From positions 14,322,001 to 14,386,000 of the forward strand of contig OX597827.1 of NCBI GenBank assembly GCA_951406725.2: a stretch of DNA of 64,000 nt. Direction: 5' to 3'. How positions within the stretch are numbered: the first letter of the stretch is position 1; each line of letters starts with the position of its first letter. A program made the position numbers and the translations under genes. The stretch is from Octopus vulgaris. Taxonomy: Eukaryota. Of this stretch, positions 7,206-58,828 are shown piece after piece. Below the pieces are notes generated by a model. It was not told the origin of the DNA. It did no database searches and saw only the letters and a program-made list of their open reading frames with translations.

Positions 7206-7905
7206 CCCTTTAGCGTTTAAACTGGCCATATCTAGCCCAATATATTCTACATATTTTATATTCAAACTGGCCATATCTAGCCTCTCACACCTAACCTACA
7301 GTGACATTCTAAAAATAAACAATCACATCATTGAAACCTCGAAGCTATGAGATAATGCATGACTAATTCAAAACAATTTAAATAAAAAAGCATTATATTT
7401 AAATATCCCTTAATCCTTTAGTGTTTAAACTGGCCAAATCTGGCCCAATATATTCTACATATTTTATATTCAAACTGGCCATATCTAGCCACTCACACCT
7501 AACCTACACTGACAGTCTAAAAATAAACAATCACATCATTGAAACCTCAAAGCTATGAGATAATGCATGATTAATTCAAAACAATTTAAATAAAAACCAA
7601 TTGCAGCATGGAAGGTGTTTGTAAGCCATTTAAGAAACACACAAAAGCCGTTCGATTCACTTCAACATTTAAGTTTAATTTGTCAAAATATTTTCGTCGC
7701 TAAAATCCGCGACCTGTTCACTGAAAAAAATCTGTGCTGCATCTGACAGCATTTGTGTGTTTCTTAAATGGCTTACAAACACCTTCCACGCTGCAATTGG
7801 TTTTCGTTTCAGCACACGATCTCAGATCAAATCACTTGCTATGCGAGTACATCTCCTTAAATAAAAAAGCATTACATTTAACAGAGTAATCTGAACACTA
7901 AAGGG
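7206..7905. mobile_element. TTAA-specific (piggyBac-like) MITE with a ~208-bp tandem duplication and a nested insertion
   Basis: TTAA-CCCTTTAG ... CTAAAGGG-TTAA termini; 7192-7400 repeated at 7400-7596; related to 13555-13775. Confidence 0.75.
7597..7856. mobile_element. Fold-back element resembling a Penelope-like inverted terminus, with a degenerate hammerhead-like motif
   Basis: 53-bp inverted repeat 7593-7645/7752-7804; 11-bp flanking duplication TTAAATAAAAA (7586-7596, 7857-7867). Confidence 0.55.
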
Positions 7906-8293
7906 TTAAATCACAGTCCATTATCTTAGAAAGGGACACATTGAATAACGTGGTCTTGGATTCCATGTACATAAGAAAAAGAAAGAATGATGTTGATCAT
8001 AGATCAACTCAATCAGAACTTATTTGGATTCAAACGAACAATAAAAACACCAGCTTGTCATTGCTCTATGATGTTCACACAGAATTGGATTATCCTTCTG
8101 TAAAAGATCAACATTCTGCTGGAAACTGCCAAACACCAAATTAATAAACTATCCAGTCTCAATAGAAACTATTGACCAGAAATATTTGTGGATAAACAAA
8201 GAGTGATGAAATGGTAACTGCAAAAAGGAATATGTTGCCAAAACGGAAAGAAAAGGACATGTCCATAGAAATATCACAAGTGATTTAATATCA

Positions 8294-9270
8294 TTAACCC
8301 TTTGGCATTTAAACTGACCATATCTGATATGTTGTAGGAGTGGCTGTGTGGTATGTAGCTTGCTTACCAACTACATGGTTCCGGGTTCAGTACCACTGCG
8401 TGGCACCTTGGGCAAGTGTCTTCTACTATAGCCTCAGGCCGACCAAAGCCTTGTGAGTAGATTTGGTAGATGGAAACTGAAAGAAGCCCGTAGTATATAT
8501 ATATATATAATAATTATTTGAGGAATATAAATCCAAACTTACAGGGAAAAAAATTCAATTTAGAAATACTAAATCAAATTTCACACAATATAATATATAT
8601 ATATATATATATATTATATGTATAATATATATATATTATATGTGTGTGTATAAGTTTGTGTGTCTGTATTTGTCCCCCCAACATCGCTTAGCAGTCACTT
8701 AGCAGTTCGGCAAAAGAGACCGATAGAATAAGTACTAGGCTTACAAAGAATAAGTCCTGGGGTCGATTTGCTCGACCAAAGGTGATACTCCAGCATGGCC
8801 ACAGTCAAATAACTGAAACAAGTAAATGAATAAAGGAATATCTAGCTCAAATTTTCTGCCTGCTCTATATTCAAACTCACCAGATTTAACCTCCTATACC
8901 TATTTCTTTACTACCCACAAAGGGCTAAACACAGAGAGGACGAACAAGGACAGACAAACGGATCAAGTCGATTATATCGACCCCAGTGCATAACTGGTCC
9001 TTAATTTATCGACCCCGAAAGGATGAAAGGCAAAGTCGACCTCGGCGGAATTTGAACTCAGAATGTAACGGCAGACGAAATACGGCTACGCATTTCGCCC
9101 AGCTGCTAACGTTTCTGCCAGCTTGCCGCCTCCTATACCTTCTATACCTACCCTACAAGGCTTTTCCAAAAATAAACAATCACATCATTGAAACATCGAA
9201 GCTATAAAATAATGCTTGATTAATTCAAAATGGTGTAAATAAATAAGCATTCGATTTGACAGAGTAAGGT
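8294..9270. mobile_element. Old TTAA-MITE interrupted by SINE A (+, ~8333-8835) and SINE B (-, 8902-9130)
   Basis: MITE sequence resumes after each insertion; SINE B flanked by CCTCCTATACCT at 8890-8901 and 9129-9140. Confidence 0.75.
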
Positions 9271-9781
9271 TATAAAGTATTCAAGTTATAAATCATATTT
9301 AAGAGAAATTTGGAATGCGTGTCACAAACACTTTTGTAAGTAATTGAAAACCTGTAACTCATCAAAGAATGTATTCTAAAGAAAAATTAAATTGTAACCT
9401 TGCCATGAAATACTGGGTAGCATTTGCATAAACAATAGTAGCAGCTAAGAAGAAGAACTACAGACTAATTACGAATGTAAATATTATGAATAAACCATGT
9501 AAATACTGATTAAATAGCTTCCTCCAAGATTACTGCATAACAATGTGGTCAGTAACGGACAATGTGGTCAAGCAGGAAACAAAACATATTGAGTGTAGCT
9601 CTGTGCCAAATAATTCATCTTCAAAGTGAAACAGTTGTTGAAGTACCGTTGAAGCCTGGCAGTATAGCTTGGCTTATTATAAGAAGTCATTTGATTCCTC
9701 TTTGGTATTATGTGGCTGTTGATGTCTTTGCATATATATACCAAGTTTCCAACACCTACAGTCAGCAGAACGGTGTAAGCA

Positions 9782-10187
9782 CTTTTTTTTTTTTTTACTC
9801 TTTTACTCTTTTACTTGTTTCAGTCATTTGACTGCGGCCATGCTGGAGCACTGTCTTTAATCAAGCAACTCGACCCCGGGACTTATTCTTTTGTAAGCCC
9901 AGTATTTATTCTATCGGTCTCTTTTGCCGAACCGCTAAGTGACGGGGACGTAAACAAACCAGCATCGGTTGTCAAGCAATGCTAGGGGGACAAACACACA
10001 CACACATACATATATATATATACATATATACGACAGGCTTCTTTCAGTTTCCGTCTACCAAATCCACTCACACGGCATTGGTCGGCCTGGGGCAATAGTA
10101 GAAGACACTTGCCCAAGGTGCCACGCAGTGGGACTGAACCCAGAACCATGTGGTTGGTAAGCAAGCTACTTACCACACAGCCACTCC
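9782..10187 (-). mobile_element. SINE family A flanked by a ~100-bp direct duplication
   Basis: Family A consensus; flank 9679-9780 repeated at 10188-10285. Confidence 0.9.
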
Positions 10188-10600
10188 ATAAGAAGTCATT
10201 TAATTCTTCTTTGGTATTATGTGCTTGTTGATGTCTTTGCATATATACCAAGTTTCCAACACATACAGTCAGAAGAACGGTAAGCGCTGAAGCAGTGAAC
10301 ATCGAAGCAAACACTGGAATCACAAACAAAATTATGTCATAGAAATATTCCAGTTTCTCTTTTCACTCTAATAGTGGAGCTCCTGTCAGATCATAAAGAG
10401 TGATTGGAGTAATTAAACCAATGCTATTCGCAACATATTTGCAGACACTTAACACTACTCTCTTATTTCTACACTTATACTTTATCTTTTTTTTTGTTTT
10501 TGTTTTTTTTTTTTATTTTGTTAGAGTGTTAAGAAGCAATTAGACTGGGCCACAGCATTCCCAAAAGATGGATTTAGGAATCGAAAACAACCAGAATAAA

Positions 10601-10857
10601 TCATCATCATTGTTCGACCGTGGTCGAGACTTTCATAGTCTTTTCAAATGGCTAATAATGTGTGCGTGCGCCACTACTACACACATTGGAAAGCATTGTA
10701 CAACCAAGCACTAAAGAAGATCTTTCCTCCTCCATGAAACAAAGCTGTTCCCGCTGGACGTCAACCCAGTATTTCTAAGCTACGGACCGAGTGATTTATT
10801 GTAAGGTTATCTCCCTAGATAGATTGCCTTCACTACGGCTAAGGAGCCCTTTCTACC
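10601..10857 (-). mobile_element. Short non-autonomous RTE derivative (putative 5' UTR joined to the 3' tail)
   Basis: 3' end GTCTCGACCACGGTCGAACAATGATGATGA nearly identical to the RTE end at 59837-59869; 10-bp TSD CCAGAATAAA at 10591-10600 and 10858-10867. Confidence 0.75.
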
Positions 10858-57062: not shown

Positions 57063-57475
57063 GAAAGGTTAATGAAACATTTGTAACATGAAACTCTGAG
57101 TAGTAAAACAGACAACACCAGGTACATACAATAAACCATTACACCCCAGAAATATATTTAGCCCTTCTTTTATTCACTAAGCAAAAAACATGTTTATATA
57201 TACACATATACATATGTGTGTGTATACATATATGTGTGTGTGTATACATATATGTATGTGTATACATATATGTGTGTGTATACATATATGTGTGTGTATG
57301 CATATATGTGTGTGTGTGTATATATATATATATATATATATATATATACACACACACACACATATGCATTTATATATATCGAACACAGTTCAAATTTACA
57401 GAAAAGAGAAGACAAAGACAGGTGAAGGAACAATAAGCAAGTGTATTAGTTTAAAGCCTGGGGAGAATGTAAAAG

Positions 57476-57513
57476 TTTTTGACATTTCGAGCCTATGCTC
57501 TTCAGCAGAAAAG
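57476..57513 (-). ncRNA. Degenerate minimal hammerhead-like motif (Penelope-like terminus)
   Basis: Minus strand CTTTT-CTGCTGA-A-GAGC-ATAG-GCTC-GAAA-TG-TC-AAAAA; the core deviates from CUGANGA in the register that gives a proper stem II. Confidence 0.45.
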
Positions 57514-58125
57514 ATGGAGTGGAAAAAGAATGGAGAGAGAACAAAAAAAAAATGGAGAGAAAATAATTGTTCAACATGATATATATATGTTTGTGAGTGT
57601 ATGTGTGTGATGTGTATGTATATGTATATGTGTGTGCATTTGAATATATTTATATATGTGTGTTTGTGTGTGTGTGCATGCACATTCATGTGTATGTGTG
57701 TGTGTGTGTGTATGCATGTTTTGCTGAACTAACAGTCAAAATAGAGCTTAGTTTATAAATACATATATATTTTTATATCATAATCAGCAGAAAGTTACAA
57801 AAGTGTCTCTACCTGAGAATATTGTGCATCACCTAGCTCAGCAAGTATGCACATGTGTGTGTGTTTGTGTGTGTGTGTGTGTATGTGCGTACGTGCATGT
57901 GCACATGTGTGTGCATGTACATATGTGTGTATATATAAATATATGTATTACCAGACATTGAAGCACAATGAAGTTCTTGGGCACATCAGCTCCTAACAAA
58001 TTGGCCAACCCATAACAGCGTGGAGCATGGACGTTAAATGATGATGATGATATATATATATATATATATATATATATATATATATATATATATATACTTT
58101 ATTTAAAAGCAGCAGAAAAGTCAAC

Positions 58126-58171
58126 AAAACTGTTACTCTGAGTTTCACATTCCCGTTCGTCAGACAGTTTT
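58126..58171 (-). ncRNA. Minimal type I hammerhead ribozyme, canonical core
   Basis: Minus strand AAAACTGT-CTGACGA-ACG-GGAA-TGT-GAAAC-TCAGA-GTA-ACAGTTTT: 8-bp stem I, 3-bp stem II with GNRA loop, GUA triplet. Confidence 0.8.
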
Positions 58172-58178
58172 TGCTCGC

Positions 58179-58224
58179 AAAACTGTCCGACGAATGGGAA
58201 CATGAAACTCAGAGTAACAGTTTT
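58179..58224 (+). ncRNA. Minimal type I hammerhead ribozyme, U4-to-C variant
   Basis: AAAACTGT-CCGACGA-ATG-GGAA-CAT-GAAAC-TCAGA-GTA-ACAGTTTT. Confidence 0.7.
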
Positions 58225-58828
58225 GTTGAATTTTCTGCTGCTTTATATAAAGCATATTACTCTACCACTGGTATTTGAGTACTCTTTTTTCCACCTTGTT
58301 TCACATTTATGTGTTTACTCCGGTATATATATATATATATATAGATAGATAGATAGATAGATAGATAGATAGATAGATAGATAGATAGATAGAAAGATAT
58401 ATATATATATATATATATATATATATATATATATATATATATATATATATATATATATATATACATACATAATACATGTATTTAATTCCCCTTGGGAAAG
58501 AGTTTAATTGATTTAATTAACTAATTGACTTCCATAATTATAATGCTGACACATTTTTCTTCAATCTCAGAAGGCTAAATTTGAACTCAGAACCATAAAT
58601 TCGAAAACATGATTTATCAAAAAATCACTTTGTTGCTAACAACAAAATGTGCTTTTATTTTTATAAGCCTCATAATGACAGCATCAGCCTTAATAATATC
58701 TCAAAAAAAGTGTAGAAAAATTTTAATGTATTTTTCCTTAATTGATGTGATCACCGTTTCAGGGAGTTTATCATAGAAGCACAAATTATTGAGGTTAACA
58801 ATGGAAAGGAAATATGGTTTTTTTTAAA

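Follow-up and report, generated by a model that had tools for sequence, protein, structure and literature searches.

Penelope-like elements (PLEs) are described as strongly 5′-truncated, with an inverted copy, itself truncated, joined at the 5′ end, with or without a tail, and with a bias toward (TA)n targets, and one of their lineages, the Hydra clade, has been reported in Octopus, with published Hydra hammerhead ribozymes displaying a gaa-actc-n-gagt helix III and (TA)n targets (PMC8557442). The minimal hammerheads of metazoan PLEs, which number in the thousands per genome, have low activity and need dimers; the motifs are mostly solitary or form opposite-strand pairs 100 to 700 bp apart, which have been read as truncated PLEs (PMC4209133). 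In the Anolis element Poseidon PAc, the tail has been traced to two internal start sites of the reverse transcriptase (RT), and the ribozyme acts with help from protein and is not required for insertion in vitro (PMC11167929). Hammerheads are known from cephalopods (235 counted in the giant squid genome; PMC6962438), and natural U3-A8, A6C, and U4C variants have been published (PMC3088659). Here, we analyze hammerhead-bearing loci in a 64,000-nucleotide stretch of Octopus vulgaris DNA (assembly GCA_951406725.2, contig OX597827.1, positions 14,322,001 to 14,386,000), referred to in its entirety as the window.

The window is repeat-rich animal DNA (133 tandem-repeat rows and a few short interspersed nuclear element [SINE]-like repeats present in many copies), in which a sequence-only reading had proposed seven loci of hammerhead-bearing micro-elements. 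All seven are present where that reading placed them (A at 7679, B at 37783, C at 39674, D at 40206, E at 46739, F at 57476, and G at 58126), and we consider the observation partly confirmed and its interpretation partly supported. Most probably, the hammerhead motifs at the seven loci mark the 3′ ends (pseudo-long terminal repeat segments) of several PLE families, left by severely 5′-truncated insertions, with C and G likely belonging to the Hydra clade. The loci are likely stumps of these families and not a new kind of micro-element; A, B, D, E, and F are putatively assigned to PLEs on their anatomy alone. The finding mostly confirms the published PLE pattern. Lunse et al. (2017) reportedly recorded about 150,000 PLE-associated hammerhead variants, and in the octopus and cephalopod literature, searched for hammerheads together with Penelope or retrotransposons (Repbase and Dfam lying outside its scope), we found no paper devoted to these families. 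The loci point to uncatalogued PLE families, two of them likely from the little-studied Hydra clade.

Hammerhead motifs and fold-back anatomy

Four motifs combine the exact core (CUGAnGA and GAAA) with its stems, namely B (core at 37792, plus strand), D (40209, plus), E (46792, minus), and the left arm of G (58163, minus; hereafter G−), and the same four display the type I arrangement of CUGAnGA, GAAA, and UH with three helices, stem I being imperfect in B, D, and E. Variant cores are present in the right arm of G (G+), in A, and in F, and the core of C is lost; as a group, the motifs are real. The loci were correctly described as minimal type I hammerheads of Penelope type, from several unrelated families and with inverted copies: their primary sequences are largely unrelated, and the only common stretch is the 17- to 20-nt stem III of C and G.

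Motif density exceeds that of shuffled DNA with both a plain and a scored descriptor. Requiring the exact core and a stem I of at least 2 bp, the plain version recovers four motifs, namely B, D, G−, and a match at 14632 that is long and weak and is absent from the earlier list, whereas 60 local dinucleotide shuffles yield 0.43 on average and none reaches four; with a stem I of at least 4 bp, G− alone passes (1 versus 0.05, a value of 1 being reached by 3 of 60 shuffles). The scored descriptor, whose variant cores were picked after the loci had been seen, returns four motifs (G−, G+, E, and A) at a score of 11 or more versus 0.02, with 0 of 100 shuffles reaching four. B, D, F, and the minus arm of C (C−) fail the scored descriptor, and F passes neither version. 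The sole Rfam match that reaches the gathering score in the window is a tRNA, with no hammerhead among the results, and an E-value scan of positions 37000 to 59000 gave no hammerhead among the matches listed (150 of 220), those listed being microsatellite hairpins. With about one ribozyme stump per 9 kb in this window, Rfam would be overlooking a dense layer of PLE hammerhead remains.

Arm alignment confirms four inverted repeats (A, C, D, and G), all of which are head to head, with ribozymes pointing outward from the center. Locus A (positions 7597 to 7856) has arms at 7597 to 7646 and 7751 to 7800, of which 48 of 50 positions (96%) are identical, and a further 3′ tail on the plus arm to 7856; it is flanked by an AT-rich target-site duplication of at most 11 bp (left copy 7586 to 7596, plus strand; right copy 7857 to 7867) and sits within one unit of a 208-bp tandem repeat, the neighboring unit of which shows the empty site. 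Locus D (39988 to 40512) has arms at 39988 to 40129 and 40253 to 40396 (123/144 identical) and a likely 3′ tail at 40397 to 40512 that ends at a TA run. One arm of A, D, and G extends 50 to 115 nt beyond the other as a one-sided 3′ tail, such that these three loci have both the inverted 5′-truncated copy and the optional 3′ tail of PLEs, and C has the inversion only. The cut sites lie 30 to 270 nt from the outward ends on the sense strand, as is typical of PLE hammerheads near the 3′ end. In locus C, and in the second arm of both A and D, truncation falls within the ribozyme or downstream of it, such that the 5′ boundary is not fixed.

Insertion into (TA)n is seen at G and at the left end of C. 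The dinucleotide microsatellites that had been described beside most loci hold up for 7 of 12 ends, from which a (TA)4+ run is no more than 5 nt away (3.4% of other bases lie within 10 nt of such a run), in a count that is partly circular because the right end of D and the ends of E and F were placed at the TA run by the analyst; locus A adjoins no microsatellite. Separately, four further fold-backs in the window have no clear hammerhead (22884 to 23175, 38387 to 38612, 38769 to 38994, and 37306 to 37419), and two of them, at 22884 to 23175 and 38387 to 38612, border on TA runs and may have been left by additional PLE families.

Among the remaining hammerheads, B (37783 to 37876, plus; core 37792 to 37798) has a long-looped stem II of 8 bp that includes one mismatch, a 3-bp stem III, an interrupted stem I, and a predicted cut after 37866. 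Hammerhead D (40207 to 40298, plus; core 40209 to 40215) has a long stem II, a 2-bp stem III, a stem I of merely 2 bp, and a predicted cut after 40296; in B and D alike, the core and stem II are good and stem I is weak. E (46739 to 46799, minus; core 46792 to 46786) combines a 9-bp stem II containing one mismatch with a palindromic ACUAGU helix III and a 6-bp stem I that is preceded by a mismatch at the first pair, and the element reaches (TA)n at 46476, 270 nt downstream. The hammerhead-like motif F (57476 to 57513, minus) has a core that, from its letters, is best read as CUGCUGA (A6C) at 57508 to 57502, together with an extra nucleotide, a 4-bp stem II, a minimal, damaged helix III, and a 4-bp U-A stem I; its core pattern has 0 matches in viral contigs. 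C and F are degenerate.

Locus G, its family, and the Hydra clade

Locus G (58097 to 58323) is a (TA)n-flanked fold-back with arms at 58097 to 58172 and 58179 to 58253 (68/77 identical) and a 3′ tail at 58258 to 58323, in which a TTGAGYAC motif lies 58 nt past the cut site (the tail pattern has 0 matches in viral contigs). Hammerhead G− (58126 to 58171, minus) has a CUGACGA core, an 8-bp stem I, a 3-bp stem II, a palindromic ACUC-A-GAGU helix III, and a predicted cut after 58134, and hammerhead G+ (58178 to 58225, plus) has a CCGACGA core (U4C), a stem I of 9 to 10 bp, and a predicted cut after 58216. Both arms are intact by eye, and both score 40.8 bits (E of ∼1e-10) against covariance model R1, which consists of 37 metagenome sequences chosen for pairing and contains none from the window. 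Locus C (39646 to 39791; arm identity, 51/61) is a fold-back of two decayed Hydra-type hammerheads that have lost the core on both arms (TTGAAGA and CCAAAGA) and retain stem III and part of stem I; the plus arm (39722 to 39765) reaches an E of 3e-4 (∼21 bits) with the same model, and the minus arm keeps only stem III. An eighth locus, outside the earlier list, is a decayed Hydra-type remnant adjoining a GA microsatellite at 57073 to 57102 (plus), with stem III intact and the core lost (rough E of 0.0012; 19 bits).

C and G share the ACUC-n-GAGU helix III and the CUGU/ACAG stem I of Hydra-2_aMil, Hydra-aJap, and Penelope-3/16_HM, and the loci in the window resemble Hydra-clade elements in their (TA)n targets, inverted 5′-truncated copy, ribozyme ∼100 nt from the 3′ end, and downstream TTGAGYAC; unlike the elements described in that source, these loci have no open reading frame (ORF), and G has a common U4C variant (PMC8557442).

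The link between this ribozyme type and PLE proteins comes from metagenomes of other animals. A pattern scan for the C/G type returned at least 121 stretches from 22 of 64 metagenome parts, of which 122 matches in 120 loci were analyzed. When folding is defined as stems I and II of at least 3 bp, with U-U admitted at the base of stem II, 50 of the 122 matches listed fold as hammerheads, versus 0.9 (maximum, 5) in 500 shuffles. Among those 50, 22 lie 94 to 249 nt downstream of the C terminus of an ORF containing RT and GIY-YIG on the same strand, versus 1 of 72 nonfolding matches, although 4 of the 22 supplied queries and many come from few sample series, such that they are not independent. The animal-associated metagenome contigs L031 (2707 to 4869), L054, L032, and L089 hold an intact 721-amino-acid (aa) ORF of a Hydra-type PLE, the one in L031, and tandem ORF-hammerhead-ORF junctions; a contig from another sample, L051, has the same head-to-head ribozyme pair. 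The L031 ORF contains RWK, DKT, and CxCx5C, which are marks of the Hydra clade. Together with (TA)n insertion, these ORF motifs, which are present in the linked ORFs of other animals, may point to the clade for C and G. Pfam barely detects the linked ORFs (GIY-YIG in one of seven, at an E of 5e-4 that is below the cutoff, and RT unrecognized). In the C/G type of other animals, 10 of 13 pairs change on both sides (0 of 500 shuffles), in a count over 37 rows that had themselves been chosen for pairing. Of 115 matches listed, 19 have TTGAGYAC after the cut site, 18 of them at 57 to 71 nt. The metagenome loci cannot be treated as copies of the same families, as BLASTN finds no nonrepeat DNA similarity to the seven loci. 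As a separate observation, stem II begins with a mismatched U-U at its base in 27 of 32 distinct folding hammerheads listed, where G has A-U.

Sequencing runs, in an analysis covering locus G only (one of the seven loci; 241 bases) in 4 of 24 runs, yielded 4,129 contig pieces on G in run X1 and 6,037 in run X6, both of them DNA runs, under two organism labels. Since summed contig depth is not copy number, we used the shape of the coverage: in X1, summed depth is ∼1.0 million on the tail, 87,000 to 247,000 on the plus ribozyme, and 373 at the center. G is a multicopy family with 3′-biased coverage and a center junction that is nearly copy-specific, which does not support the proposal that the fold-backs replicate as micro-element units. 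Other copies of G end at 58257 in (TA)n, and the family has two discrete 3′ ends, the signature of the PLE tail. Across the family, no change reaching 5% is listed at G5, A6, G8, A9, G12-A15.1, U16.1, or the cut site, and variation falls on N7, on U4 (with C making up a large share), on the middle of helix III, on the outer part of stem I, and on a single pair of stem II (58195/58202), which is U-A in this copy and C-G in 85% and 73% of X1 depth as per-position frequencies. We considered CpG decay as the origin of the CCGACGA/CTGATGA variation and regard it as unlikely, as the mirror G-to-A core changes are not listed at 5%. That run X5 is an RNA run is a guess only, and we draw no expression claim from its contigs.

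Several results weigh against an origin of the loci in truncated PLE insertions. The window holds no remnant of a PLE ORF (tblastn; best E, 0.26), such that the proposed linkage to Penelope RT/GIY-YIG ORFs is confined to contigs from other animals and, among the ribozymes, to the C/G type. An RT ORF of the long interspersed nuclear element (LINE) type at 29010 to 30527 was examined as the partner and ruled out, as it is not a PLE by tblastn. The hammerhead of Hydra-1_Obim matches none of the seven, and because the hammerheads differ, C and G would represent other families. Upstream of stem I, G is heterogeneous across copies (loose-end agreement of 0.48 to 0.56), which would also fit short master elements starting at the ribozyme. 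Finally, the raw-read run X23, which has the organism label of X1, produced only eight reads, all on the tail, which is not the depth of a high-copy family; the reads may have been filtered, or the label may cover a different organism.

Mechanism and competing explanations

Under the origin that we favor, the GIY-YIG endonuclease of a PLE would nick AT-rich or (TA)n DNA, and RT would start at either of two internal sites close to the RNA's 3′ end, giving a short end or a tailed end. RT would copy only 100 to 300 nt, and a second, inverted, truncated copy would be joined head to head; the fold-back would thus be made anew with each insertion. Anolis Poseidon PAc has in common with these loci an AT-rich target and an optional 3′ tail, explained by two sites of RT initiation; it differs in being a biochemically characterized full element, and C3G/G8C is present there only as an engineered partial rescue (PMC11167929). 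In the parent element, the ribozyme would function dimerically or assisted by protein. Most ribozymes of the stumps have decayed or are predicted to pair with their own antisense arm, making double-stranded RNA (dsRNA) likelier than cleavage.

Predicted folds agree with this expectation. Stem I is predicted to form in isolated arms of G, but when the transcript spans the entire locus, all ribozyme pairs are predicted to drop to a probability of 0.00, the RNA adopting a hairpin of −108 to −116 kcal/mol. For D, the full locus is predicted to fold at −179, with ribozyme pairs again at 0.00 and barely formed even in isolation. With the ribozymes of G and D predicted to be sequestered by the antisense arm, the loci are unlikely to cleave host transcripts. 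The suggestion that they could cleave any transcript crossing the region is unsupported on further grounds, in that each ribozyme is present on only one strand, damage affects most of the copies, and helix III needs a dimer. When two copies are cofolded, the active dimer is not the predicted minimum-energy form, a result of little weight given that ViennaRNA has no model of the hammerhead core. If transcribed, the fold-backs would be a ready source of long dsRNA and potential substrates for ADAR or small-RNA pathways. Adjacent SINE-like copies in inverted orientation, at 11695 to 12740 and 1126 to 1971, are further possible dsRNA sources.

The alternative that survives best, although we regard it as unlikely, is that short, ORF-less masters, each comprising a PLE pseudo-long terminal repeat and a hammerhead, are transcribed and mobilized in trans by PLE proteins as high-copy nonautonomous families. 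Such masters would account for the thousands of G contig pieces, as opposed to the only octopus Hydra element described, noted with four copies ending at one site, as well as for the heterogeneous sequence upstream of stem I in G, and non-LTR retrozymes have been proposed to be nonautonomous derivatives of PLEs. However, coverage of G rises severalfold toward the 3′ tail, as truncation predicts, the center junction is not shared, and the truncation points in C and in the second arms of A and D leave no fixed 5′ boundary. Moreover, a T-rich stretch lying upstream, which resembles the 5′ flanks in the Hydra table, is common to the loose ends of two runs.

Far less probable is the view that the fold-backs are DNA transposons resembling miniature inverted-repeat transposable elements (MITEs), or chance palindromes, with hammerheads arising by coincidence in AT-rich DNA. 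The absence of an Rfam match, the failure of B, D, F, and C− with the scored descriptor, and the four additional fold-backs without a clear hammerhead are in line with this view, and for F or C− alone, it is possible. For the set as a whole, it conflicts with the excess over shuffles in both descriptors and with the model match on G (E of ∼1e-10), and the one-sided tails and copy-specific center are unlike the terminal inverted repeats of MITEs.

The least probable explanation is that the loci are non-LTR retrozymes, i.e., noncoding type I hammerhead elements of animals that are tied to PLEs (PMC7229834; 10.64898/2026.07.22.740005) and in which head-to-tail tandem units of 150 to 450 bp with two hammerheads give rise to circular RNAs (PMC7229834), as the loci share the type I hammerhead, animal host, and lack of an ORF but are single or head-to-head copies, with inverted instead of direct pairs, motifs of the minimal PLE type, and no tandem array with a ribozyme in each unit.

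The core of locus A and neighboring features

Hammerhead A (7679 to 7728, minus) has the core GUGAACA at 7721 to 7715, in which G3 and C8 replace the C3-G8 pair. It has an extra nucleotide after A9, a perfect 5-bp stem II, a palindromic AAUAUU helix III, a stem I of 3 bp, a mismatch, and 3 bp, and a predicted cut after 7686; in folding predictions, stem II persists in the loop and stem I is lost in longer contexts. An extra nucleotide after A9, G10.1-C11.1, and a palindromic helix III are features that A, E, F, and B have in common with metazoan PLE hammerheads, the reported natural core swap of which is U3-A8 and not the G3-C8 of A (PMC4209133). Two chance transversions at exactly the paired core positions are unlikely because the arms of A are 96% alike. 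The literature gave only the engineered C3G/G8C partial rescue, and the supplements of the 2011 and 2014 papers may hold natural cases. The core pattern of A has 0 matches in viral contigs, and six GC-rich bacterial matches, which are without stems I and III, were taken as chance. The swap, seen in one copy, is a candidate lead to a natural variant.

It is possible, if doubtful, that A belongs to a multicopy PLE family with a natural G3:C8 pair and that, together with A6C in F and the U4C subfamily of G, it represents high-copy natural core variants on short nonautonomous masters, i.e., a natural mutagenesis of the hammerhead core. Should G3:C8 be family-wide, it would constitute natural covariation at a catalytic pair, for which the literature gave us nothing but an engineered rescue, and would provide a test of whether selection for cleavage acts on PLE ribozymes.

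Elsewhere in the window, the tRNA gene match (4440 to 4522, minus; 53.9 bits) has a long variable arm. Non-LTR 3′ ends in (AAT)n are present at 22204 to 22522, 54754 to 55072, and 23298 to 23710, two copies being 97% identical; they have no Pfam match, and we take their peptide to resemble the end of a restriction-like endonuclease. The LINE-type RT frame at 29010 to 30527 (plus) is open over 505 aa (Pfam RVT_1) and starts right after a long (TA)n tract, and fragments of 3′ parts related to this element are found at ∼3127 to 3550 and 26345 to 26618.

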